A DNA stretch of 64,000 nucleotides from a virus, in UHGV virus genome UHGV-1550212; one strand, given 5' to 3'. The translations under genes and the position numbers were made by a program. Under the pieces are notes generated by a model, which searched no databases, was not told the origin of the DNA, and was given only the letters and a program-made list of their open reading frames with translations. Below are positions 905 to 63,356 of the stretch, piece by piece (within the stretch, counting starts at the first letter, position 1; each line of letters starts with the position of its first letter).

Positions 905-1261
905 ATGCAAATCCCTCGTAACTGGGGGGGGGCACAACAAGCCCTCCAACAAAGAAAGCTGTTAAAGCAGTTCACCGTACATATTTATACTCGGTACACT
1001 ATACCAATTAGACTGACATTTCTTGATAGAGAATTGCCACAAGAAGTTGGTCCTATTAAAACAGTGACGCCAATGTTGTATGATAATAGTACAGCTATCA
1101 CAATTTACAAAGGCACGCAAGTGTTCTATGATTTGTACTATGATGAAGTTAAGTTTGCTACGCATATCATAGCAACACAAGGCAACACAAACTATGGTGA
1201 AATTGAATTTGACGCTGATGATATCAAAGCATCAGAATATGCAATATACATTGGTATTTGA
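905..1261 (+). CDS. hypothetical small protein (118 aa; alternative start 1073)
   Basis: Only plausible plus-strand ORF here. ATG 905 lies about 30 nt after the last promoter-like repeat copy, and the bidirectional terminator 1333-1364 follows. A G9 tract occupies codons 7-9. The 785-904 part of the tracked ORF is translated tandem repeat. Confidence 0.45.
   Translation: MQIPRNWGGAQQALQQRKLLKQFTVHIYTRYTIPIRLTFLDRELPQEVGPIKTVTPMLYDNSTAITIYKGTQVFYDLYYDEVKFATHIIATQGNTNYGEIEFDADDIKASEYAIYIGI
920..936. repeat. right arm of inverted repeat: AACT-G9-CACA
   Basis: The G9 homopolymer at 924-932 lies inside codons 7-9 of ORF 905-1261. Confidence 0.85.
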
Positions 1262-3646: not shown

Positions 3647-6600
3647 TTATCGAACAAGGAATGACGTACCAACAACCATATTCGGGATTGCCAAGCCATT
3701 GCCAGACTGGCTTACTGCAACTGTGCCACTTGTGTAACCTGACAATGCTGCAGTAATTGTTGCCGACCTGCTGTTATCTGAACCCCAGTTATTTGCAGCG
3801 GACAATGTCGAACCTCTGATTGTGAATGCGCCATTGTTCGATGAGTACGTTGGAGTAACCGCAGCATCTGATGTTGTAGACTGACCTGTCGTGTACTTTG
3901 TGACAGTTCGACCTGTCGTAGACAATGTTGCAGTGCCACCAGCAGCCCCAAAGCTTGTAACAGTTGAGCTGACAATCAGAGTCTTCGTAGTCGAAGTCAC
4001 ACTGTTGGCTTCCTGTGTAGCAGTGATTGCTTTTGAGCCAGTTTGACCATTCAACGCAACCGTCATATTGACTGTAGCGGTTCTTGCAGAACCAGCAGTT
4101 GTGCCACGATTTGCAGCAGTCAATGAACCGGTTGTACTACTGTTAAGCGTAAAGCCAGTAGTTGTAGCCATACTGTATGAAATTGTACCGCCAGATGTAA
4201 TAGTAGTTTTTGAACCACTTGTGTACGTTGCTGTCTGCGAGTATGCTGGCGTGCCTGTTGGAGTCTTTGTTGCACCTGCTGCAGCAAATGTTGCATATGA
4301 TGTTGCTGTAGTAACTGTGACTGCACTGTATGATACACTGTTAGTTGCTTGATAGACATCAAGTGCTTTTGTAGCAGTCTTAGACCCTTCACCAGTAGCA
4401 GTTGCAGTCAAAGTGCCAATCTTTGTACGAGCTTTAACTGTAGTGCCAAGCGATGATGCGCTGACTTTTGTGCTATACGCAATGCTAACTGAGCCTGCCC
4501 TTGTGCTGCCAGACGTATATGTAATTGTCTGTGATGCACTGATGCCAGACATTGATGCGACTTCACCACCGCCAGCAGGAATATCTGATACAGAACCACC
4601 AGAGATTGTTACTGCGCCATATGTCGTAATTGCATTTGCAGCTTGGTACACATCGACTGCTTTTGTTCCAGATTTGCCATTGACTGTTACAGTAACAGTA
4701 GATGTTGTAATCTTTGTGCGGGCTTTAGCAGTAGTGCCAAGTGAACTACCAGACACTGCGCCAGTAGACGTTGTTACACCAGTACCAGACCATGATTTGC
4801 TGCCGCCAGACGTAACTGTCTGTGTTGAGCCACTTGACCACGTAACTGATTGACTGAATGACACCGTAGGCGTAACTGAGCCGCCTTTTGCAGGAATATC
4901 ACCATAAGTCATCGAAACTGTTGGCATGCCATATGTAGCAGCATTAGCATTTTGAGATGCAGTAGCAGTCTTTGTTCCACTGATAGTCTTTGTGCCTGCT
5001 GCGTTGTATGATGCAGTTGGCGTCCATGTAGCCTTTACAGTCTTTGTGACTGTTGGCGATGTTGTTGCACCACTTGCAGTAGTGCCTTTTGATGATGCGG
5101 TTATAGCACCAGTAGATGCATTGAGTGCAGTGAACAATCCTGATGCGCCTGGCCAGCTATATGATGTTGTAGTTGACAATGAACCATACGTAGATGCTGG
5201 CGCAGTAGTTGAAGTACTGCCACTACTAAAGTGGTATGTTACTGTGTTTGCACCATTTGACGGTGTAGATGTTCCGCCACCTGCAGCAATTGCAGGATAT
5301 GACATCGAACCAACTGCAATATTGAGTGCAGTCACATAGTTGCCTGCCTGATAAATCGTTGCAGACTTGCTGGCAGATTTGCCATTCATTGTGACTTTAA
5401 CAGTCAGTGTACCTGCAGTAGTCTGGTTAGATATTGTAGTGCCCTTTGATTGCACAGTGACTGTCGATGTGTACTCAATTGTTCCGCCGCTTGTCAGTGT
5501 TTCTGTCGTCTTTTCACCAGTAGCATATGTCGTAGTTTTGACTTGCGAATAAGTTACTGTACCAGATTTTACAGAACCGCCGCTTGCTGCAATGATAGTT
5601 GCAGACGGTGTCAAGTTAACTGTGATATCGCTATATGTAACTGTGCCAGCAGATTGAGCTGCTTGATAAACATCTGCAGCTTTTGATGCAGACTTACCGT
5701 TGAGTGCTACTGTGACAGTTAATGTGCCAATCTTTGTTCGTGGCTTAACTGATGTGCCAAGTGATGATGCAGATATACCTGCTGCTGGGCTATATGAAAT
5801 TGTGCCACCAGTAGTAATGTTCTGAGTTGATGTTGATGTGTATGTAGCAGTCTGCGAATATGACACATTGCCACTCTTAATTGTACCACCAGTTGCAGGA
5901 ATATCTGCTACAGTGAAGCTTGAAATTGTAACTGCGCCATATGACACAGTGTTTGCAGCTTGCTTGACTGTGCAAGAACCAGTTTTTGTAACACCGCCCT
6001 CAGTGTATGAGCCAGAAATTGTAATGCTGCGTTCTGCGCCTACGACTGTTGTGCGATTTGCTGCAGTTACTGTAGTAGTCGACAATGTAAAGCCAGTTGC
6101 TGAACCGCTAAGTGTTGCAGATACTGCAGCAGATGACGTTGAGCCTGATGCATATGTGTATGACGCTGTTGAAGTGATTGTAGTTGAACCGCCACCAGCT
6201 GCCAATGTTGCAGCGCCAGGTGTCAATGTCAAGCCATTCAGCGTCTTTGAGTTTGCAGTTTGTGTTGCAGTAGCAGTTTTTGTAGCAGACTTGCCATTGA
6301 TTGCTACCGTAACTGTGACAGCATTTGAAGCATCAGTAGAGCCTACATATGATGTGCCCATTGACGTTACAGTCAATGCGCCACTTGTCGTATTCAATGT
6401 CCAGCGTGACTTAGCAGTCATTGCATAAGACAATGTAGCACCACTTGTCAATGTGCCACCTGAGCCAGCTACGCCATTCCAAGTCCAGACTTGTGAATAT
6501 GAAACAGTTGGGTTTGATGTACCACCAGCAGGAGCAATGTTTGAATATGAGAACGTTCCAATGACAGGCGTTTCATAGACTTTAGCGCCTGCAGCTTGGT

Positions 6601-19064: not shown

Positions 19065-20123
19065 TTATGAACGTCTTGTTAACAATGCATGACCACAATC
19101 ATAAACTGCAACATAGCCAGTGTTAAGCATCTCTTGCTCATCTTGGCCGGCGTCTACAATATGTTCTTTGCTGTTAAGTTTGACCCAGTGCTTGCAGATT
19201 GTTGATTTATCATCTGACAATTTAGGGTTAATGCAGAAGTCTGTTGAGTTTATTGTGTTGTCGAGATGTTGTTTGATGACATCGACAACTTGCTCTGGTG
19301 TCATCCAATCAAACACTGTTATGCAAGTGTAGCCATATTTGAGAGCAAGTTGAGCTTTGTTGAAGTGATAGTCGAATGGAATTGGATGATTGTGTTTTGA
19401 TTTGCCAATTGCATATGCATAGCCATATGTAGAGTTGTGACTGATTGTTGGGCAAATTTCAATCAGCAAATGCTTATAATGCAGGTCATATGACTGGCGT
19501 TCAATATTGACGTCATCACAGTCAAATGCAAGCCCAAGTTCTTGTAACAGCAAAGTTTGCCATCGTTTGTTTGTAGCTGATATGACATTTTTGTGAGCAT
19601 TGCGACATTTTTGATGCATACAAAAGAATGGGACACCATATTTTTGCTGCATCAATTTAGTGTCAATGCCTGCTGCATTGCCATAACGTTCAAGCTTCGT
19701 TGCTCTAATTTTGTCAGCATCACCCCAAATGTTGCCATATCGTTTGCGCTTTGTGTCTTGAGACTTCTTAATGTTGCCACTGCGGTTGCCATAAATAAGT
19801 TCCTTTGATTGACACGCATGTTCAGCAGCATCTGGCCCATATATGTGACCGTATTTTTGAAGCTTAATTTCATTGATACGTTCTACTGGGCCATTTGGAT
19901 GACCATAGCGTTCTTGTTTGATGCGTTTTGTGTGCTCAATTGTTGACTTTAATGCAAGCTTTGACGTGACGCCAAATTTGCGCAAACAGCCTATTCTAAT
20001 ATTGAAACTACGTTTAATATGTGATGCTTCTATTTTTGTAACAGCCAATTGCAATGCATCATCACGTTCAGTTTCAAGCATGCAAATTTGTTCATCAATT
20101 GTCATAGCATCAAACCATTTCAT
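19065..20123 (-). CDS. freestanding homing-endonuclease-like protein, paralogue 1 (352 aa)
   Basis: Carries six tandem (K/E/Q)(R/K)YG-x3-G repeats followed by YDLHYKHLLIEICPTISHNS, which resembles Vsr/DUF559-type nuclease cores. The C-terminal region aligns closely with 48845-49876. Confidence 0.75.
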   Translation of the reverse strand: MKWFDAMTIDEQICMLETERDDALQLAVTKIEASHIKRSFNIRIGCLRKFGVTSKLALKSTIEHTKRIKQERYGHPNGPVERINEIKLQKYGHIYGPDAAEHACQSKELIYGNRSGNIKKSQDTKRKRYGNIWGDADKIRATKLERYGNAAGIDTKLMQQKYGVPFFCMHQKCRNAHKNVISATNKRWQTLLLQELGLAFDCDDVNIERQSYDLHYKHLLIEICPTISHNSTYGYAYAIGKSKHNHPIPFDYHFNKAQLALKYGYTCITVFDWMTPEQVVDVIKQHLDNTINSTDFCINPKLSDDKSTICKHWVKLNSKEHIVDAGQDEQEMLNTGYVAVYDCGHALLTRRS

Positions 20124-21690
20124 TCAACTTGTCAACATTCTTTTTGGCATCTGCACTTTGTACAAATGCATAGACGTTGTCATAGACTTTGCTAATTGCT
20201 GCATCTGTATAGTCATAGAAGTTGTGTCGAGTTCTTGAAGTTCTACCACCTTTGATGCCGAGTGATGTTTTGTCAGAATCTGATGGTTTCCAATATGTTC
20301 GCCCAAACCCAGTAGATAAAATCATACTTTCCACACCAGACCTATCTCGAGGCATAGCATGCTTCAAATGGCAAGTTACAATGAAGTCAGTTGGAAAGTC
20401 ATCATAGCCAAGCTCACTTGATGCAGGTTGAATGTCAGTTTTCGTCAAGATAAGATTGCCAATGCATGCAATTGGGCGAAGGGGATTTCCTAATAGCAAG
20501 TGCCATTCGCCGATGGCGTCGCCCTTCAACAAGCTATTCATAACAGGGATTGCTGGTCGACCAATAGTGTTCAAGAATTTTGCAACAGCAAAACGTTGAA
20601 ATGCAAGTTTAGCAATCTGCTGCAATTTTTGTTTTGCTGCTTCTTTTCCACCACCGCTTGCATTCATAATGTTTTGGGCAATACCTTTGAAGAAGTCTGT
20701 GATTGAGTTGAATGAACCATCAAGTGCATCTTGAATAACTGCAGATTCAAGTTCAAGCGCTTTGTTCCAGAATATTGAAGGCTGACCGCCGACCCAATAT
20801 CGGCCCCCACCCCAAAACTTTGCATCATTGTATGTGCATTGCATCACATTGCTCAACAAGTCAAGCATTGCTGTTTTGGGATTGATTCCATCAATCGACT
20901 TCAATGAATAAAAGAATTTGACAGTCAATTCATGTTCGAAGTTCAAACCAACATCACGAATATGAGTCTGCGTAATTGAATCAATCGGGCCATAAACTTT
21001 GTTATGGTCATGTGTAGGGTCTATTGACAGTCGTGCTTTGCCACGCATTTGGTCTTTTGCATACACTGGGTCCATCAATTTTGCCACTCGACCCATCCAG
21101 CCACTAATGCCATAATTACCTCCACTGTCACCACGCATTTCGCCTTGCTCCAATGCAGCAGATAATTCTTTCCAACGCATGCCAAAACTGAAGCTTAGCA
21201 AATCTTCAAGTTTGTTGTTTTCACCATCAAACCACGTAATCATATGGGCGATTTCTGGTGTTTGCTGAACTGTTGTGTTGAAGATGTCATCTTGACATGG
21301 CTCAGCAAATCTACGCAATGTGATGAGTCTGTTGTTCGGGATTTGGCCAAGAAATCTGCAATATGCAAAGTCTTGCCAATCATATGTTGATGCACCAATG
21401 GGGTTGTTGATGATATTTGCTGCAGTAGGCGTCAAGTATTGCAGGCCTTGCAAGTCTTGGTCAAAGTACACAGTTTTGCCATCAGGCAATTGCGGTGCTG
21501 CAAATAGATTCCATGCATTGAACAAAGACTGCACACCTTGTTTTGATGCATCTTCTGCACCACGAGGCATATCAGCATTGAGCTTCTTTTCATAAAAACC
21601 ATGCTCATAATCTGTTTCTTGTGCAAATGCGCCAGTCAGTGTGCTACTATCTGCATTAAGCTTATTGTCTTTTGGCGGAGCTATTGTAGC
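20110..21690 (-). CDS. hypothetical virion protein (526 aa)
   Basis: Long ORF. The tracked start at 21723 is TTG, so ATG 21690 (MATIAPPKDNK...) is preferred, downstream of the GGTACATATCC motif. Confidence 0.75.
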   Translation of the reverse strand, partial: ATIAPPKDNKLNADSSTLTGAFAQETDYEHGFYEKKLNADMPRGAEDASKQGVQSLFNAWNLFAAPQLPDGKTVYFDQDLQGLQYLTPTAANIINNPIGASTYDWQDFAYCRFLGQIPNNRLITLRRFAEPCQDDIFNTTVQQTPEIAHMITWFDGENNKLEDLLSFSFGMRWKELSAALEQGEMRGDSGGNYGISGWMGRVAKLMDPVYAKDQMRGKARLSIDPTHDHNKVYGPIDSITQTHIRDVGLNFEHELTVKFFYSLKSIDGINPKTAMLDLLSNVMQCTYNDAKFWGGGRYWVGGQPSIFWNKALELESAVIQDALDGSFNSITDFFKGIAQNIMNASGGGKEAAKQKLQQIAKLAFQRFAVAKFLNTIGRPAIPVMNSLLKGDAIGEWHLLLGNPLRPIACIGNLILTKTDIQPASSELGYDDFPTDFIVTCHLKHAMPRDRSGVESMILSTGFGRTYWKPSDSDKTSLGIKGGRTSRTRHNFYDYTDAAISKVYDNVYAFVQSADAKKNVDKLNEMV

Positions 21691-21731
21691 CATATCTTCA
21701 AATGTATTTAGGATATGTACCAAACAAACAA

Positions 21732-21758
21732 AAAGCTTGACTTATTCAGTCAAGCTTT
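21732..21758 (-). terminator. hairpin/terminator that overlaps the stop codon of 21742-22233
   Basis: 10-bp stem AAAGCTTGAC/GTCAAGCTTT followed by UUUGUUUG. Confidence 0.55.
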
Positions 21759-22233
21759 GTTCAGAAAGTTCAATAATTTGTGTTTCGTATAGTCGTCGTA
21801 GTTCATCAAATCTTACACAGTTTTTGTCATACAGTGTAGCAAGGCCTTGCAATGCTTGTTGTTTGCTTGTCCATATGATGTCAGCAGTCAAATCCCATAG
21901 CCACTTTTGTGCATAATAAAACTTCCAGTCATGCCAAAATGTCTGTGCAGTGATTTGCTGTTCTTTATCATCAATGTAGATAAAGTGATGTGTTGGATTG
22001 CCGCTTTCAAGGTCTATGAATCTGAATGTTTTGTTTGCTACATGCTTAGCAATCCATTCGTCAGACGCAATGACTTCTTGTAACGCACATTGATAATAGT
22101 AGCGTTTTGCAATATCAAAGTGTCGAACTACTACGCCACGAAACAATGTCCATAGCCAGGGCTCTTCTTCTGAACTTCTAATCCAATAAACTTCTTGATT
22201 TACTGGTAGAAAATCGTAGTGAACGAGGTCCAT
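21742..22233 (-). CDS. hypothetical protein (163 aa)
   Basis: ATG ORF. Its stop codon lies in the loop of hairpin 21732-21758. Confidence 0.65.
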   Translation of the reverse strand: MDLVHYDFLPVNQEVYWIRSSEEEPWLWTLFRGVVVRHFDIAKRYYYQCALQEVIASDEWIAKHVANKTFRFIDLESGNPTHHFIYIDDKEQQITAQTFWHDWKFYYAQKWLWDLTADIIWTSKQQALQGLATLYDKNCVRFDELRRLYETQIIELSEQSLTE

Positions 22234-22236
22234 CGC

Positions 22237-22866
22237 TTACAGATGCACATTTACACTTGTCACAAGGTCGCAATCAATCAATGCTTTGAGCGTGTCAATT
22301 TCATTGTAGCCAAATGCACTTGTAGCAGCAAGCACATGATTGACATCAACTGCAGCAGTAATGTCAACCACAACAGTTTTGTCATCTTCAAGTGGCTGCA
22401 AACGTTTAATGAGTTGATGCAGCATATCATCTGCCGGTATGCTTGGCTGTTGTGCAGATTCAGCAACATAAGTGGTTTTGACTGGCTGTTGCGCAGGATA
22501 TGCAGGCACTGGTGACACTGGTTCAACTGAGCGCTCAGTTTGTAGCGCAGCAACTGGCTGCGTTGGCAAAATTGTCTCTGACACAGTACTGCCATCTGCA
22601 GCAGTTGTAGTTACGCTTGGAATCACAATTGGCTGAGAGAACACGTCGTCTTGAGGACGATTCCAGGTTTCAATTTCAGACAATGCATAAAGACGATTTT
22701 GGTCATCCCATGCCTTATCAGCTTCTTCGTCAATTGCAACAATTGTTCGAATTTCTGCTGTTGCTGGCCTATCGCCATTTTCAAGTTGTTCAATGACTCT
22801 GATAGGCGCTATTGATGTTCGTGACATATTTGGATGGTTTTTTTTATATTGTACAACGTAAAGCAT
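22237..22866 (-). CDS. hypothetical protein (209 aa; alternative start 22827)
   Basis: ATG ORF. An internal ATG at 22827 is preceded by the TTGTACAATATAAAA motif, so the true start is uncertain. Confidence 0.6.
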   Translation of the reverse strand: MLYVVQYKKNHPNMSRTSIAPIRVIEQLENGDRPATAEIRTIVAIDEEADKAWDDQNRLYALSEIETWNRPQDDVFSQPIVIPSVTTTAADGSTVSETILPTQPVAALQTERSVEPVSPVPAYPAQQPVKTTYVAESAQQPSIPADDMLHQLIKRLQPLEDDKTVVVDITAAVDVNHVLAATSAFGYNEIDTLKALIDCDLVTSVNVHL

Positions 22867-22905
22867 GCATTTGCATCTGTGTACGTTATTTTTATGCTGA
22901 GCACT

Positions 22906-22939
22906 CTGCGTAAAATAGCAAAATGCTTATTTTACGCAG
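22906..22939 (-). terminator. hairpin after the tail-fibre gene
   Basis: 12-bp stem CTGCGTAAAATA/TATTTTACGCAG with a 10-nt loop and no clean U-run. Confidence 0.5.
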
Positions 22940-53739: not shown

Positions 53740-53781
53740 ATTATATTGAATATGATACAACACTTGTGACATTTTTGCTTA
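53740..53781 (-). promoter_or_regulatory. early/middle-type promoter-like motif
   Basis: Minus sense TAAGCAAAAATGTCACAAGTGTTGTATCATATTCAATATAAT, upstream of primase-helicase ATG 53710. Confidence 0.4.
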
Positions 53782-54420
53782 GAATGCGACACCGACATGT
53801 GCGCCAATCATAGCAGCTTTTGAGTCAACTTTCTTCATGCAGCCTGCATCAAGACCTATACGCCATTGTAAACTACTCTTACCAAATTGACGAGTGTATG
53901 ATAGCCAATACATGTCAATTGATTGCTTGTTAAATGTGCCAAATGCATAGTGAAAGTCTACATTATTTCGTGGTGCATCATGGTCAATGACTTTGATTGT
54001 CGTAGTTTGCACTTCACGAATAACTGTGTCTGCTTTGAACATCAAAACGTCCCAATCACGTTGCTTGATTGTGTTTTGCGTAATGTAGTCTTTTATTGCT
54101 ATTTGCAGTTTGTCTGACTTCAATGTGTCTGCATACTCATACTGTGCAAAGTAGTCATTAACATACTGCATAAGCTTTGTAGTGTCTATGTCAACTACAA
54201 GAGTCGTGTCACGATACACTGGCACTGGTATTGTCTTGCCAGGCATATGAACTGTGTCGTGTTTAATAACAGTGTCAGCTTTGACAATTGGCTCTGCATT
54301 TATAGCATCTTGATATGTTTGCCAGTCTTTTGGGCTGACAAAATGCCAATCTTTGAAAATCATGACAGCAGTCAATACAATGACTGCTGTCATGACTATG
54401 ATTTTGAGTGTCTTCAACAT
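53779..54420 (-). CDS. hypothetical signal-anchored beta-rich protein (213 aa)
   Basis: ATG 54420 is preferred because the tracked start is GTG. Has an N-terminal hydrophobic helix, and the C-terminus ends ...GAHVGVAF. Confidence 0.6.
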   Translation of the reverse strand: MLKTLKIIVMTAVIVLTAVMIFKDWHFVSPKDWQTYQDAINAEPIVKADTVIKHDTVHMPGKTIPVPVYRDTTLVVDIDTTKLMQYVNDYFAQYEYADTLKSDKLQIAIKDYITQNTIKQRDWDVLMFKADTVIREVQTTTIKVIDHDAPRNNVDFHYAFGTFNKQSIDMYWLSYTRQFGKSSLQWRIGLDAGCMKKVDSKAAMIGAHVGVAF

Positions 54421-54426
54421 ATTCAC

Positions 54427-56022
54427 TTATGCTTTTGCAGTTACAGATGATAAGACAATTCGTTGCAGGAAATTGCCTGCAGTGTCCATAATGTCCCAAG
54501 TAGTACTTGAGCCCTCATTGTTTGACAATGTAAATCTGATGTAATTCGATGTTCTTGTCAATTCATCGCGAATGATATTGTTGCCTGAACGTGCAATGTA
54601 ACTGCCAAATTTTTGCAATGCTATCTGAGCATTGTCTGTGTCAAGCAATGCAATTGATATGTCTACAGAAGAGCCCTTTGGGCAGTTGATTGTCTTGACA
54701 ACGAACAATGATTGAGCATCATCATTTATCACAAGCTTGCTGATAAGCGTAGGCACAGGTCTGTCAATCTGCAAGACTCTATCTACGCCCGCTTTTGCAT
54801 TGCCAATGACTGTCTTTTGATTGATGACTTTATGCACAATGTCATATGATTCAAATTTGACTTGAGGTTTACGATGCCAGCAAAGCATTGCAATGTCATC
54901 TTCAGACAGAATCAATTGCATTGAACGACTTATGCGTACTTGTCCAAGAGTTGACACGTAATCAAGCACAGCAGTAACATACACAAGAGCCATTTTTGGC
55001 TTGTTATCTGGATTGTCATCGTCTACAATGATAGGCGACCATTCAACTGCTTGTGTCGCGTTGTCAACATTTGCAAATTGCATATGTCGTATGCTTGAAT
55101 CTATGAGAACGCCTTCTGCATTGTATGCTTGCAAGATGACGTCATACGTGACATTCGCATCATCAATCAACTCAAGTCTTGAAATCCAATCTGACAGTTG
55201 CATTGTACGATGCTTCATCTGCATTTCAATGCATGCAGGCGCAAATTCGGATTCTTGTCGCAGTACTACATCTGCATACAAAGTCTCATCTTCATTGCCG
55301 GTCAACAGCAATGCTTGTTTGATTTCTCGAAGAGCAAACTGAGTAAATGTTCTGACTGCCCCAGATACAAGTGACTGCTCAAATGAGTAAACTTTGTCAT
55401 CATACACAAGTCCAATCTCAACATTGATATTTGATTGCAATGCTCGTCTTGTAGATGTGCCAAACACGAACTCACGAACTTTAGACATTTCATCACTGTT
55501 CATTGAACACAAGAAGTCAATATCGACAATCTTGAATTCAATTTCAGTAGTGAACTGCTCATTGTCAATGACGACAATCTTGTTTTTGACAGGTGTAAAC
55601 AATGAACGTGCTTTGATGTCAAGCAATGACATCAAACTGTATTTGACATCATCAATGTCAATTGACAGTCTAAGCCAAACGCCAATGACATTTGATGCAT
55701 AACGAAATCCACTGACTGCGTATAATCTGCATGTCAGATATTGCAGTTTGTCAAGCGATGTCGTCTTATATGCCGAATCTGCAAAATTTGCGACAATTGT
55801 GTCTGTGTATGAGTCTGGTGTCAGATATGTCGGCACCTGATATGTAGTGTTTTGTGCAACTGAACTGTATTCACGAACATTGTGTGTTTCTGCACCATCG
55901 GCATTCAATAGATGCACAACACCGCCACTTGCAATCTTATGCAAGGGCACGTCTGTCATGTCGTAGACACTTGAATCACCAATCTCAAGTGCAAAGTCTT
56001 CAGTCAGTCTCAGTCGTTGCAT
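54427..56022 (-). CDS. hypothetical protein (531 aa)
   Basis: Long ATG ORF downstream of a terminator and promoter-like motif. Confidence 0.7.
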   Translation of the reverse strand: MQRLRLTEDFALEIGDSSVYDMTDVPLHKIASGGVVHLLNADGAETHNVREYSSVAQNTTYQVPTYLTPDSYTDTIVANFADSAYKTTSLDKLQYLTCRLYAVSGFRYASNVIGVWLRLSIDIDDVKYSLMSLLDIKARSLFTPVKNKIVVIDNEQFTTEIEFKIVDIDFLCSMNSDEMSKVREFVFGTSTRRALQSNINVEIGLVYDDKVYSFEQSLVSGAVRTFTQFALREIKQALLLTGNEDETLYADVVLRQESEFAPACIEMQMKHRTMQLSDWISRLELIDDANVTYDVILQAYNAEGVLIDSSIRHMQFANVDNATQAVEWSPIIVDDDNPDNKPKMALVYVTAVLDYVSTLGQVRISRSMQLILSEDDIAMLCWHRKPQVKFESYDIVHKVINQKTVIGNAKAGVDRVLQIDRPVPTLISKLVINDDAQSLFVVKTINCPKGSSVDISIALLDTDNAQIALQKFGSYIARSGNNIIRDELTRTSNYIRFTLSNNEGSSTTWDIMDTAGNFLQRIVLSSVTAKA

Positions 56023-56040
56023 ATTGTCGAAATCTTGTTT

Positions 56041-56060
56041 GTGTTATATGTACACAAAAC
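56041..56060 (-). promoter_or_regulatory. late-type promoter-like motif (GTTTTGTGTACATATAACAC)
   Basis: It lies between terminator 56060-56085 and ATG 56022. Confidence 0.4.
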
Positions 56061-60716: not shown

Positions 60717-60737
60717 TTTGTATATGTACATAAAAGA
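60717..60737 (-). promoter_or_regulatory. late-type promoter-like motif (CTTTTATGTACATATACAAAC)
   Basis: It lies between terminator 60736-60765 and ATG 60701. Confidence 0.4.
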
Positions 60738-61160
60738 GCAAGTTCTCAATGTGGAGAACTTGCTCAGCTGACCTGTTGCCAGGTGAAAGCGTGGTGCAGC
60801 ACCTTGTGCTGCAATGGCTATGCTGCCATCGCCATAACGGGCTGAGCATTGCCCAGCATCATTACACGACCAGCTGCATTAAGCGTACGCTTTGCTTTGT
60901 TGAAAAATTTGCCAGTTATCTGGTATCTGCACATCTATTCAAGCGACCTACTATGCAATCAAATGCCTGTCGAGCCCAATGTTTGAGCAGTTGTTTGTCA
61001 GATGCTCAGCTGACTGCAGTCTTTCTGAGTGTATCAAGTTCAGCGATTCTGCATCTTTGCTAAATGGCAATAGTTCAGGTGGACTCGCCGAGAATCGAAC
61101 TCGGGTCTTACATAGCGCATCCTTGACTTGGTCCTGTAAACAGGGTTGTCAACATGCATT
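60732..61160 (-). ncRNA. ssrA: candidate circularly permuted (two-piece) tmRNA-like gene: acceptor piece about 61160-61078, spacer 61077-60978, coding piece 60977 to about 60736
   Basis: Hand fold. The T-arm CCGAG-UUCGAUU-CUCGG is followed by the 3' acceptor strand CGAGUCC-A-CC (61104-61078). The 5' acceptor strand GGGCUCG (60977-60971) gives 7 bp with G3.U70 and A73. The P2a-like pairing is UUGCAUAG (60958-60951) with CUAUGUAA (61115-61108). An AUG-less frame ends ...GNAQPVMAMAA-UAG (stop at 60818-60820) inside hairpin 60811-60832. The terminator is at 60736-60765. Confidence 0.5.
60736..60765 (-). terminator. rho-independent terminator that ends the tRNA/tmRNA-like transcription unit
   Basis: Perfect 12-bp stem GAGCAAGTTCTC/GAGAACTTGCTC with a 6-nt loop, followed by UUUUAU. 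Confidence 0.8.
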
Positions 61161-61231
61161 GCAATACGACAGGACTCGAACCTGCGACCTCGGATTGGAC
61201 GTCCGCGCTCTTACCGCTGAGCTACGTATTC
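61161..61231 (-). tRNA. atypical tRNA, Gly(UCC)-like
   Basis: Hand-folded 71-nt cloverleaf with D-arm GCUC/GAGC and T-arm GCAGG-UUCGAGU-CCUGU. The anticodon loop is CGUCCAA, which puts G at position 33. There is a G1.G72 mismatch and no clear nucleotide 26. Confidence 0.5.
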
Positions 61232-61321
61232 TTATCAATTGACTGCACTGCAATGCAATCAATCGTGCCAATGATATTTGACGCATAATTGCAGTTATGC
61301 GTAACAATTCAAATGTCATTG

Positions 61322-61394
61322 AGCCAACTGCAGGAGTCGAACCTGTAACCTGCTGATTACAAATCAGCTGCTCTGCCAATTGAGCTAAGTTGGC
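61322..61394 (-). tRNA. tRNA-Thr(UGU)
   Basis: Acceptor GCCAACU/AGUUGGC, anticodon arm GCUGA-UUUGUAA-UCAGC, T-loop UUCGACU. Confidence 0.9.
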
Positions 61395-61396
61395 AT

Positions 61397-61475
61397 AAAG
61401 TCGTTGGGCCATTGCAACCCAAACCTATCATCTTTGTCTAACCAAAGATGCAAGTGTTCTCTTACACCACGACTT
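61397..61475 (-). tRNA. non-canonical tRNA-like gene (identity undetermined)
   Basis: Perfect 7-bp acceptor AAGUCGU/ACGACUU. A single linker nucleotide precedes the D-arm GUGU-AAGAGA-ACAC, which lacks GG. The central stem is 8 bp, CAUCUUUG/CAAAGAUG, with a 6-nt loop GUUAGA. The T-arm is UGGGU-UGCAAUG-GCCCA, lacking U-psi-C. It sits 1-2 nt from canonical tRNAs on both sides. Confidence 0.4.
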
Positions 61476-61476
61476 G

Positions 61477-61548
61477 TAGCCGAACTTGGAGTCGAACCAA
61501 GCTTTCGAGAATGAAAATCTCGCGTCCTAACCGATAGACGAAACGGCC
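61477..61548 (-). tRNA. tRNA-Glu(UUC)
   Basis: Anticodon arm CGAGA-UUUUCAU-UCUCG and T-arm CUUGG-UUCGACU-CCAAG. The acceptor has two U.U mismatches, at 6:67 and 7:66. Confidence 0.75.
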
Positions 61549-61731
61549 AAGAGCAGTTCAAGTCTGCAGCATTGAACTGCGGAAACAATGCCTGTACGGG
61601 CAGCAAATTGTGCAGATACAGCGACATTGCAAAATCACACCGAACCAAGTTTGTGGCTCTTCTGTCTCATAAAAACAAGTAATCATTACACTTGGCACCA
61701 ATGATTCTGATGTAAAAATCGGTGTGTTATG

Positions 61732-61816
61732 CGGAGAGTAAGGGATTCGAACCCCTGGTACGTTGCCGTACAGTGGTTTTCAAGACCACCGCCATCGACC
61801 GCTCGGCCAACTCTCC
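61732..61816 (-). tRNA. tRNA-Ser(UGA)
   Basis: Class II tRNA. Acceptor GGAGAGU/ACUCUCC, anticodon loop CUUGAAA, 16-nt variable arm, T-loop UUCGAAU. Confidence 0.9.
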
Positions 61817-62010
61817 ATAAAACATTGCATAAGCATTCTTATCTCTTGATGAGACCAAGTAGCTAATTTGGCAAGTTTGTTATATCTATCGTGACTGTTG
61901 CAGTTTGTTTGTCACTCAATACACAAAACTTTCGAACATTCATTGACAGCACTGCAATATCGCTTTTTAAGCTTAGCCATCAATGTATTTATGCAATGTA
62001 TAACAATTCG

Positions 62011-62092
62011 TAGCCAAACCGGGACTTGAACCCAGACTCCTAATGGAACAACATTTTGAGTGTTGCGTGTCTACCAATTCCACCATTTGGCC
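62011..62092 (-). tRNA. tRNA-Leu(CAA)
   Basis: Class II tRNA. Anticodon arm CAACA-CUCAAAA-UGUUG, 13-nt variable arm, T-arm CUGGG-UUCAAGU-CCCGG. Confidence 0.9.
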
Positions 62093-62182
62093 ATTTACAA
62101 ATGCAATCTATTTCACAACTGTTTGCATTTGCATTGTTTAACACTAAAAATATGATTCATCTAATCAAAAACCAGAGAATTG

Positions 62183-62256
62183 TAGGGTAGACAGGACTCA
62201 AACCTGCGACCACGTGGTCCCAAACCACGCATTCTAATCAACTGAACTACTACCCT
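62183..62256 (-). tRNA. tRNA-Pro(UGG)
   Basis: Acceptor AGGGUAG/CUACCCU and anticodon arm CGUGG-UUUGGGA-CCACG. The T-loop UUUGAGU is slightly atypical. Confidence 0.85.
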
Positions 62257-62262
62257 AAGTAG

Positions 62263-62334
62263 TTGAACCGTCTGGACTCGAACCAGAAATGGCTGAACCA
62301 AAATCAGCTGTGTTACCGATTACACCACGATTCA
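62263..62334 (-). tRNA. tRNA-Gln(UUG)
   Basis: U1-A72 acceptor UGAAUCG/CGGUUCA, anticodon arm GCUGA-UUUUGGU-UCAGC, T-loop UUCGAGU. Confidence 0.9.
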
Positions 62335-62858: not shown

Positions 62859-63356
62859 TCATTCGATGTTACCAGATAATATCCGAATGGCATCCAATGC
62901 ATTTTCTCGTATTAAGCCAAACTTACCTATAACTTGAACAAAATGTTTGTCATTTTCAAATGTTGAGTCGTCAAGAATGACATATTGTTTGATGTTATGT
63001 TTATCAACAAGCGCAGGCACTGCAGCAAATCTGTCATAAAAGCCCTCAGCATAAATTGATGGCAACAAATAGCCCGGCATATTGCGCTTAAGCCACATTG
63101 TCTTGCAGTCATCAAGAATAGCCCAACTACTTATCAAGCAAATTGCGCCAACATCTGACATCTGACAAATGTATCTCAACCAGCCAACACAACGTTCGTC
63201 AAATAATTGACCAAACTCATCTCTCGACTGCACATCCATGTTTGCACGATGTTTTGACATGTGCAACATATTGAGATTATCTTGGCTATTCAAAACGCCA
63301 TCAATATCCAAGAAAATTACTTTGTCAGGCCAAATCACTTTGCTTGCTGCGTTCAT
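62859..63356 (-). CDS. HAD-superfamily phosphatase-like protein (165 aa)
   Basis: N-terminal VIFLDIDGVLNS, the DxDG nucleophile motif of HAD phosphatases. Confidence 0.7.
   Translation of the reverse strand: MNAASKVIWPDKVIFLDIDGVLNSQDNLNMLHMSKHRANMDVQSRDEFGQLFDERCVGWLRYICQMSDVGAICLISSWAILDDCKTMWLKRNMPGYLLPSIYAEGFYDRFAAVPALVDKHNIKQYVILDDSTFENDKHFVQVIGKFGLIRENALDAIRILSGNIE

Follow-up and report, generated by a model that had tools for sequence, protein, structure and literature searches.

The tRNA array and the element within it

Here we describe a small element, designated X, that lies within an array of transfer RNA (tRNA) genes in the virus genome UHGV-1550212. The stretch of this genome that was analyzed is 64,000 nucleotides (nt) long and is referred to below as the window; unless a related locus is named, positions are those of the window. 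X occupies the gap between tRNA-Glu and tRNA-Thr, and in our reading a relic that does not decode, or a spacer for processing, is a much more probable identity for it than a tRNA with a special purpose. The array is transcribed right to left, and the features of the unit are listed here in the order of transcription.

62334-62262, minus strand: tRNA-Gln(UUG), called by ARAGORN and Rfam; head of the array and apparent functional paralogue of X
62256-62182, minus strand: tRNA-Pro(UGG), called by ARAGORN and Rfam
62092-62010, minus strand: tRNA-Leu(CAA), called by ARAGORN and Rfam
61816-61731, minus strand: tRNA-Ser(UGA), called by ARAGORN and Rfam
61548-61476, minus strand: tRNA-Glu(UUC), directly upstream of X, no encoded CCA; called by ARAGORN and Rfam (46.4 bits)
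61394-61321, minus strand: tRNA-Thr(UGU), 2 nt downstream of X; called by ARAGORN and Rfam (65.9 bits)
61231-61161, minus strand: tRNA-Gly(UCC), called by ARAGORN and Rfam
61169-60727, minus strand: permuted transfer-messenger RNA (tmRNA) call, ARAGORN
60736..60765, minus strand: intrinsic-terminator-like hairpin, a 12-bp stem followed by a U tract, closing the array and tmRNA-like unit

By the ARAGORN boundaries, X lies 1 nt after the discriminator of tRNA-Glu and 2 nt before tRNA-Thr, in agreement with the spacing given in a preliminary description of this DNA. The end of tRNA-Glu is placed at 61476 by ARAGORN and at 61477 by Rfam. The scan that detected the terminator-like hairpin found no minus-strand sigma-70-like site inside the array. 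Because this hairpin follows the tmRNA-like gene and no internal promoter-like site was seen, X is probably co-transcribed with the seven tRNAs and the tmRNA-like gene in one apparent unit.

Sequence and fold of element X

The RNA of X (minus strand) reads AAGUCGU G GUGU AAGAGA ACAC UUG CAUCUUUG GUUAGA up to the end of its central loop and continues with CAAAGAUG AUAGGUU UGGGU UGCAAUG GCCCA ACGACUU U. Its parts are as follows.

61397..61475, minus strand: whole tRNA-like element X (79 nt), from its sequence, its fold and one covariance-model match in the window
61469..61475, minus strand: 5' strand of the acceptor stem, AAGUCGU; pairs perfectly with 61398-61404, invariant in 10 haplotypes
61398..61404, minus strand: the acceptor stem's 3' strand, ACGACUU; pairs with 61469-61475
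61454..61467, minus strand: D-arm equivalent GUGU-AAGAGA-ACAC, a block in common with the D arm of tRNA-Gln
61429..61450, minus strand: 8-bp inverted repeat CAUCUUUG/CAAAGAUG, apparently the former anticodon arm; perfect, with a 6-nt loop at 61437-61442
61405..61421, minus strand: T-arm equivalent UGGGU-UGCAAUG-GCCCA; third loop base C, U or A in relatives

Together these parts make a cloverleaf with stems of 7, 4, 8 and 5 bp, and every pair is formed in the window, including the 7-bp acceptor stem and the 8-bp stem with its 6-nt loop that had been described at the outset. The discriminator position is U (61397), and no CCA is encoded. Folding of X gave a minimum free energy of -28 kcal/mol (z = -3.9), which was equaled by none of 200 shuffled sequences (0/200). 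The cloverleaf lies 2.8 kcal/mol above this minimum, a gap similar to that of the adjacent real tRNAs, and RNAalifold yielded the cloverleaf unprompted when applied to eight variants.

X was not recognized as a canonical tRNA, for which we used the RF00005 gathering score of 29 bits or a default ARAGORN call. ARAGORN, a check proposed in the preliminary description, made no tRNA call for X in default mode, and Rfam gave no family match to X at the gathering score or at E≤10 (RF00005 was tested over a 1.4-kb stretch). Relaxed ARAGORN modes returned a tRNA-?(UUGG), a mitochondrial (mt)-like “Stop|Leu” tRNA and a Val(GAC) tRNA with a 5-nt intron; these calls were inconsistent and mutually incompatible, and they were treated as artefacts. 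The intron reading was rejected because the implied anticodons change across the loop variants (GAC, GGC, GGC and GCC) and because, to our knowledge, bacteria have no mechanism that removes such a 5-nt tRNA intron. With regard to individual features, X possesses the usual stack of acceptor (7 bp) and T (5 bp) stems, both invariant in 10 haplotypes. Missing are the 5-bp anticodon stem and the 7-nt loop, in which a canonical tRNA has U33 and, at position 37, a purine. The canonical elbow pairs G18-psi55 and G19-C56 are also absent: the D loop AAGAGA has no GG, and the T loop has G at position 55 and, depending on the relative, C, U or A at position 56. The earlier statement that the T loop lacks U54-psi55-C56 thus holds for position 55, but equivalents of U54, C56, A57 and A58 are kept.

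Distribution of X among relatives

No close relative of the window was found among 50,697 deposited phage genomes, and a blastn search with the array matched single ordinary tRNAs, not X. The topoisomerase II subunit encoded in the window is 38.6% identical to that of Chryseobacterium jumbo phages and 99% identical to that of a 175.6-kb IMG/VR contig. Protein look-ups revealed many near-identical contigs, some of them 153-176 kb, in ENA metagenome assemblies, whose names include COST17-2, SHET22-1, ZELL14-1 and XUQI22-1. From the sample names alone we took these four as lake samples; the array belongs to a lineage of lake phages with genomes of about 175 kb, the lake origin being read from the same names.

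X was present in a single copy in all of the related arrays recovered (14/14; related loci are numbered L001, L004 and so on below), and these 14 X-bearing arrays represent 10 distinct haplotypes of the Leu-to-X stretch. Absence from close relatives, which had been named in the preliminary description as an argument against the element, was therefore not observed. A covariance model built from X (R1) had one match in the window and detected no second copy of X in the window, in relatives or in the tRNA region of phage T4. An exact 22-mer of the hairpin had 0 matches in IMG/VR. Searches with 18- and 19-mers of the T arm recovered one further true copy each in IMG/VR and in JGI metagenomes, the remaining matches being chance occurrences in coding sequence. 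Patterns from the 5' and 3' parts of X found nothing in 185,579 bacterial and archaeal genomes (GTDB).

More distant relatives were also considered, using the topoisomerase and a HAD-domain protein that is encoded upstream of the array (see below). In L004, where the HAD protein is 61% identical, the array is present, and the contig stops after tRNA-Ser, before the slot of X. L007 and L009 (about 60-65% topoisomerase identity) had no tRNA by ARAGORN, and no module of HAD gene, array and tmRNA was seen in them. In L022, with the same range of topoisomerase identity, the gene map has no room for an array and R1 gave no match, ARAGORN not having been run on this locus. L005, which has a 45% HAD homologue, is not syntenic. 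Nothing was found in IMG/VR with the HAD protein of L004 and a 20-mer of its tRNA-Gln.

Probable derivation from tRNA-Gln(UUG)

X was aligned with 16-22 tRNAs from this array, its relatives and T4. In global alignment, tRNA-Gln of the window stood out with z = 5.0, every other tRNA having z≤3.1. In local alignment with 16 tRNAs, the top four matches were all tRNA-Gln alleles (z = 6.0, 4.3, 3.9 and 2.7), the best being tRNA-Gln(UUG) of the window itself (62262..62334, z = 6.0). Three blocks occur in the same order in X and tRNA-Gln, i.e., the 11-nt block UCGUGGUGUAA, which is exact, AACAC and UUUGGUU, and the spacing between the last two is 7 nt in both. Besides, CAUC/GAUG, which makes up the outer half of the 8-bp stem, matches the anticodon stem of tRNA-Gln in L004 (CAUCA/UGAUG).

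The shared block UCGUGGUGUAA implies that U7 of X is the counterpart of U8 in a normal tRNA. The sole nucleotide that links acceptor and D stems, which had been listed among the peculiarities of X, is thus present but is a register effect, caused by a one-base shift of the acceptor register; in the alternative register X has C1.U72, A73, U8-G9 and a UUGGG/CCCAA T stem. The alignment with tRNA-Gln also places the ancestral anticodon UUG at 61443-61445, in the 8-bp stem, on its 5' strand. What was once the loop, C-U-U-U-G-G, has become part of this strand, and the anticodon UUG is therefore base-paired. The 3' strand contains CAAAG, the complement of the former loop, and this is what expansion of the arm by template switching would be predicted to write. 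X shows both collinear similarity to a functional tRNA (z up to 6.0) and loss of the decoding part, and it is probably a paralogue of the phage tRNA-Gln(UUG) that has lost its anticodon loop. Among the options raised in the preliminary description, a decayed pseudogene comes closest to this result, given the match to tRNA-Gln and the anticodon buried within the stem.

Variation and remodeling of the central arm

The loop is the least conserved part of X, and the tip of the stem is a mutational hot spot. Among relatives that elsewhere share about 95% identity or more, four short-loop sequences were observed: the window has GUUAGA, the commonest is GUUAGG, L001 has GCUAUG, and L013, L024 and L025 have CCUAAC. 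CCUAAC is the exact reverse complement of GUUAGG. In L026 and L027, an 18-nt hairpin-forming palindromic insertion enlarges the loop to 24 nt, and the two long loops are likewise exact reverse complements of each other. On the basis of these two pairs, the segment between the 8-bp arms was inverted at least twice within a shallow lineage. The insertion, TATTGCAACATTTTACAATA (flanks included), is found in X at L026:2094-2190 and L027:1367-1463 in opposite orientations. It does not resemble a mobile mini-element because no other copy of the 18- to 20-nt sequence was found in any relative locus examined.

Template switching at short inverted repeats has been reported to homogenize and expand the arms and to invert the spacer between them, and these documented outcomes of quasipalindrome mutagenesis fit the perfect 8-bp arms and flipped loops of X (PMC8604942, PMC13100816, PMC7202029). 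By analogy with these reports, the substitutions, flips and palindromic insertion at the stem tip are the apparent signature of template switching at an inverted repeat. Most descriptions of the process concern reporters in E. coli and the genomes of yeast and apes, unlike the present case, and in the literature we found no account of template switching remodeling the anticodon arm of a phage tRNA. It accounts for the origin of the arm, not for the role of the RNA.

This variability bears on whether X decodes. It had been suggested at first that the UUA and UAG triplets of the loop might be meaningful and that X could be a nonsense suppressor, or a quadruplet reader that uses an 8-nt loop if the closing G-C opens. 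Loop positions 2-4 read UUA, UUA, CUA and CUA in the four short-loop variants, i.e., YUA in all of them, which is in favor of such a role; however, this pattern follows from an invariant central UA combined with inversion, and the loops of L026 and L027 are 24 nt long. Real tRNAs of the array behave differently: the anticodon loops of Pro (L001 and L006), Ser (L001) and Gln (L013) are unchanged though the gene bodies have been replaced. Since real array tRNAs keep their anticodon loops and that of X varies in four sequences, flips and bears an 18-nt insertion, it is not an anticodon, and the triplets noted in the window are not conserved. Moreover, X lacks both a 7-nt loop and U33, has G, G, U or A at the position-37 equivalent, and bears an arm that exceeds the proper length by 3 bp or more. 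The alignment with tRNA-Gln puts the original anticodon within the stem, and no Rfam tRNA, tRNA-Sec or other family matches X.

Several minus-strand pairs of open reading frames (ORFs) that are in frame across a single TAA could also be taken to favor a suppressor. Two such runs are 22237-22926, 21742-22236 and 20110-21741 (minus strand), and 54427-56043 and 53779-54426 (minus strand); 6 of 8 abutting in-frame minus-strand pairs use TAA. We read these runs as tight gene packing, not read-through, because the in-frame TAA junction of the 531- and 215-amino acid (aa) ORFs differs in frame or spacing in relatives. A check of recoding, also proposed at first, showed that standard-code ORFs reach 1442 aa and that all three stops are used in the 64-kb window (TGA 25, TAA 20, TAG 6), so that no recoding that needs a suppressor was seen in the window. 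Decoding by X, as suppressor or quadruplet reader, is accordingly very improbable in our judgment.

The preliminary description had further likened X to special-purpose tRNAs of the pyrrolysine (Pyl) and selenocysteine (Sec) types, and this likeness proved superficial. Similar to the tRNAPyl of Desulfitobacterium hafniense and Methanosarcina, X has a sole linker nucleotide (G8 in D. hafniense) and an anticodon stem longer than usual, its D loop is small and contains no GG, and T-psi-C is absent (PMC7609411). tRNAPyl has a 6-bp anticodon stem, a 7-nt loop, a 3-nt variable loop, G1:C72 and G73 (PMC7609411), whereas X has A1:U72, U73, an 8-bp stem, a 6-nt loop that is not conserved and a variable region of 4-7 nt. 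CUA, which is fixed in tRNAPyl, occurs in the loop of X only in GCUAUG (L001) and CCUAAC (L013, L024 and L025). There was no match to PylRS among the ten neighboring proteins scanned, the whole genome not having been searched. As for tRNASec and allo-tRNAs, these have 8/5, 9/4, 8/4 or 9/3 geometry, a long variable arm and a 6-bp D stem; in contrast, X has 7/5 geometry, no long variable arm and no match to the tRNA-Sec family RF01852.

The inversions and the palindromic insertion also show that the repeat forms hairpins during DNA synthesis. This could mean that the feature acts at the level of DNA, the 8-bp palindrome forming a cruciform, binding a protein or promoting recombination, for instance in an endonuclease-driven cassette exchange within the array, and that the RNA fold is incidental. 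Consistent with this, the Thr cassette differs in L025 and L027 and identity to the window stops at the 3' end of X or within 2 nt of it (≤2 nt), a 28-nt insertion with a 9-nt direct repeat lies right after X in L006, and DUF559-type endonuclease ORFs stand beside the array in L006, L025 and L027. However, the palindrome lies exactly at the place of the anticodon arm in a complete cloverleaf that fills the gap between two tRNAs to the nucleotide. The G.U pairs of the minus-strand RNA would be A.C mismatches on the other strand, and R1 scores 109 bits on the minus strand versus 29 bits on the plus strand. The palindrome is also unique in the window, and L026 tolerates two mismatches in it. A purely DNA-level role therefore appears improbable to us.

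Variation and constraint

Rates of variable columns were compared across the Leu-to-X stretch in the 10 haplotypes, with the intergenic spacers as reference.

Intergenic spacers: 46/375 variable columns (reference)
tRNA-Leu and tRNA-Glu: 3/156 variable columns, p = 1e-4 versus spacers
X outside the central loop: 6/73 variable columns, p = 0.43 versus spacers
X central loop: 4/6 variable columns, p = 0.003 versus spacers
X acceptor and T stems: 0/24 variable columns, one-sided p = 0.048, a post hoc choice of columns

Outside its loop, X varies about as the intergenic spacers do, and the neighboring tRNAs are significantly more conserved. There is a hint of constraint on the acceptor and T stems. 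Pairing in the D stem is kept by G.U pairs, its 3' strand being ACAC in the window and GCGC in all relatives, and L026 has two U.U mismatches in the 8-bp stem. This stem was intact in 9/10 haplotypes, which answers one part of the covariation check suggested earlier, but no compensatory change accompanied it. All copies of X are at least about 90% identical, so that a covariation test has no power here; because no pair shows a compensatory change, the fold is plausible and is not proven by comparative data.

Several of these results weigh against the view that X is a relic that does not decode or a spacer for processing. Of the 24 pairs, none is broken in 9/10 haplotypes, which is more than expected of a long-dead pseudogene and could point to a hidden function; the rate test indicates a relaxed body of X, and the perfect stems point the opposite way. 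The rapid turnover of the loop could reflect diversifying selection instead of mutation bias. The evidence for constraint on the acceptor and T stems is marginal (p = 0.048) and comes from columns picked post hoc, and no compensatory double change was found in any pair among the 14 copies, which come from one shallow lineage. In addition, the ancestry from tRNA-Gln is drawn from short alignments between paralogues in which the 3' half aligns poorly.

Selection on the loop would be expected if X were a stable tRNA-like RNA acting in trans. In such a case the top half would give processing, CCA addition and stability, and the long arm would be the working end, with a variable tip that either regulates through loop-loop contacts or acts as bait or decoy for a host nuclease that targets tRNAs or a defense protein that binds them. 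The tip would then be under diversifying selection. The loop indeed changes faster than the spacers (4/6 versus 46/375) on stems that are perfect in 9/10 haplotypes, and there are signs of tRNA conflict at this locus, where tRNA bodies are swapped between conserved spacers and an RNA-repair-type HAD_SAK_2 phosphatase gene lies just upstream of the array. Host defenses that cut tRNAs, and phage tRNAs that evade them, have been documented (PMC10264068, PMC11555353, PMC11464382, PMC12445682), and T4 keeps two stable RNAs, rnaC and rnaD, in its tRNA cluster. On the other hand, bait for an anticodon nuclease should retain a mimic of the anticodon loop, whereas the loop of X has 6 nt with only the central UA conserved; its flips to the reverse complement and its tolerance of an 18-nt insertion are a poor fit to a mimic. 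Inversion of the spacer is the expected neutral product of template switching, and the body of X is no more conserved than the spacers. A search of the array with the loop complement found only the D loop of tRNA-Glu or unrelated places, and thus no co-varying partner. A trans-acting role is therefore possible but unlikely. In a more specific version, X would be a tRNA scaffold, processed by RNase P and CCA-tailed, on which a palindromic flip-flop arm presents GUUAGG, CCUAAC or 24-nt tips across the population as bait or antagonist in a tRNA conflict, and the same conflict would drive the cassette swapping in the array; we regard this version as distinctly less probable than the general one.

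A probable non-decoding element that may punctuate processing

We favor the reading that X is excised by RNase P like a tRNA and sets the boundary of tRNA-Glu on its 3' side and that of tRNA-Thr on its 5' side but does not decode, and give it a probability of roughly 55%. Template switching at the inverted repeat of an anticodon stem would have turned CAUC(A)-loop-(U)GAUG into CAUCUUUG-N6-CAAAGAUG, with expansion and homogenization of the arms and inversion of the spacer between them. In the resulting arm, no fewer than 8 pairs would be stacked, and with stacking of the flanking U-A and non-canonical pairs there could be as many as 11 layers. With this arm length and the fixed geometry of a tRNA on the ribosome, no triplet would lie at the normal distance from the 3' end, and the arm, whether with a 6-nt or a 24-nt loop, would be unable to offer a triplet to the A site of the ribosome. 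The acceptor/T minihelix is what RNase P and the CCA-adding enzyme recognize. The 12-bp minihelix is intact in X, and RNase P would still be able to cut at its 5' end; a second cut at the 5' end of tRNA-Thr would then free X as an RNA of about 80 nt. X would in this way punctuate the precursor at least passively, so that tRNA-Glu is freed at its 3' end, which has no CCA, and tRNA-Thr at its 5' end. That X is transcribed and processed, receives CCA and stays uncharged is inferred in each case.

The closest functional analogues of X, by comparison of arrangement and shape, would be rnaC (species 1) and rnaD (species 2) of T4, which are also non-tRNA genes at tRNA-like spacing in a phage array. 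tRNA-Arg is followed after 1 nt by rnaD and this, after a further 6 nt, by rnaC; the latter ends in a T arm and an acceptor-like 3' strand and has a long hairpin with a 6-nt loop. The T4 array also holds a homing endonuclease gene, segB, inside it, and endonuclease ORFs adjoin the present array in relatives. However, the two T4 RNAs are 119 and 139 nt long, unlike the tRNA-sized X (79 nt), and the canonical T loop that rnaC retains (UUCGAAU) is not found in X. R1 found no match to rnaC or rnaD when the T4 tRNA region was searched. X can be traced to tRNA-Gln.

A further parallel is provided by the t-elements of plant mitochondria, which are non-decoding tRNA-shaped signals recognized by end-processing enzymes that thereby set the ends of neighboring RNAs (PMC1920247). 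These elements flank organelle mRNAs, whereas X lies between two phage tRNAs and its processing is inferred. Our literature search found no described phage tRNA-like element or decoy of this kind.

Apparent cassette exchange and unusual tRNAs in the array

Whole tRNA bodies differ between genomes whose spacers are nearly identical, and the anticodon loops are kept (window 61161-62334, L001, L006, L013, L025 and L027). For example, tRNA-Pro of the window and that of L001 and L006 differ in 39/75 columns, tRNA-Gln differs in L013 (26/73 columns) and again in L025, tRNA-Ser has been replaced in L001, and tRNA-Thr in L025 and L027. Judged from the aligned genes, these swaps look like cassette exchange or gene conversion within the array.

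Two of the replacements are unusual tRNAs. In L001, a 99%-identical relative, the canonical tRNA-Ser(UGA) of the Ser slot (window 61731-61816) is replaced by a gene at 5902-5984 (plus strand) that has no default ARAGORN call and scores 41.8 bits with RF01852 (gathering score 47, E 1e-6). It has an 8-bp acceptor stem, a 4-bp T stem, a 7-bp D stem, a 4-nt D loop, a long variable arm and a UGA anticodon, suggestive of an allo-tRNA-like 8/4 fold in a phage. In the Thr slot of L027 (1466-1551, plus strand), an 86-nt tRNA(UGU) replaces the 74-nt tRNA-Thr(UGU); it is of class II shape, with a long paired variable arm, and scores 53.8 bits with the Rfam tRNA model. Bacterial class II tRNAs are normally those for Leu, Ser and Tyr only, and for this reason the 86-nt tRNA could be charged with an amino acid other than Thr.

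Insertions and additional ORFs were also seen at or near the array. In L006, a 28-nt insertion right after X (1025-1054, plus strand) is flanked by a 9-nt direct repeat, TGCCAACTT, that equals the start of tRNA-Thr. It holds a 7-bp inverted repeat (CTTGACA...TGTCAAG) and moves tRNA-Thr to 30 nt from X, both genes being unchanged. ORFs for DUF559/Vsr-like endonucleases follow tRNA-Gly in L006 (1305-2144) and L027 (1728-2567), another lies upstream of the array in L025 (328-1293), and an unrelated 215-aa ORF (L016:5832-6479) is found at the array edge in L016-L020. The window lacks all of these presence-or-absence ORFs. By analogy, the array-edge endonucleases could drive the cassette exchange.

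Other features of the array unit

Directly after tRNA-Gly, 60727-61169 is a candidate phage-encoded two-piece tmRNA, judging from its sequence features. Rfam tmRNA_permuted (RF04321) matches 60818-61138 with 30.8 bits (E 2e-4), under the gathering score of 47, and a T arm and ACCA lie near 61077-61110. A permuted two-piece tmRNA was also called by ARAGORN in L011, L013, L015, L024, L025 and L026, and the predicted tag ends in ...PVMAMAA or ...PVMSMAA.

Upstream, and separated from the array by one short ORF, is a gene for a 165-aa HAD_SAK_2 protein (62859-63356, minus strand; PF18143, 54 bits), a family whose title is “HAD domain in Swiss Army Knife RNA repair proteins”. The pairing of this gene with a tRNA array recurs in L004, where the protein is 61% identical.

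Four spacers of the array (61232-61320, 61549-61730, 61817-62009 and 62093-62181, minus strand) are strongly structured. The Thr-Gly spacer contains two long hairpins (-28.9 kcal/mol over 89 nt), and the longer spacers are rich in TGCAAT/ATTGCA motifs. Comparison of the four spacers with tRNAs gave no significant similarity, i.e., no tRNA relics were found in them. They may be processing sites, promoters of a type not yet described or small RNAs.

Implications

We class X as a probable tRNA-derived non-decoding element in a phage tRNA cluster, and its apparent remodeling by template switching at an inverted repeat is unusually legible. In itself it is of modest weight, as a clean and datable case in which the anticodon stem of a phage tRNA gene put that gene out of use: its inverted repeat would have expanded and engulfed the anticodon and would now flip the loop, and a processing-competent top half would survive in a packed polycistronic precursor. 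The case also carries a warning for annotation, since tRNA-sized gaps in phage arrays may hold tRNA-shaped RNAs that are neither tRNAs nor empty spacers. More valuable than X is its context, namely an array that swaps tRNA bodies and includes an allo-tRNA-like 8/4 Ser tRNA and another that combines a Thr anticodon with a long variable arm, alongside a permuted tmRNA-like gene and an RNA-repair-type phosphatase gene.

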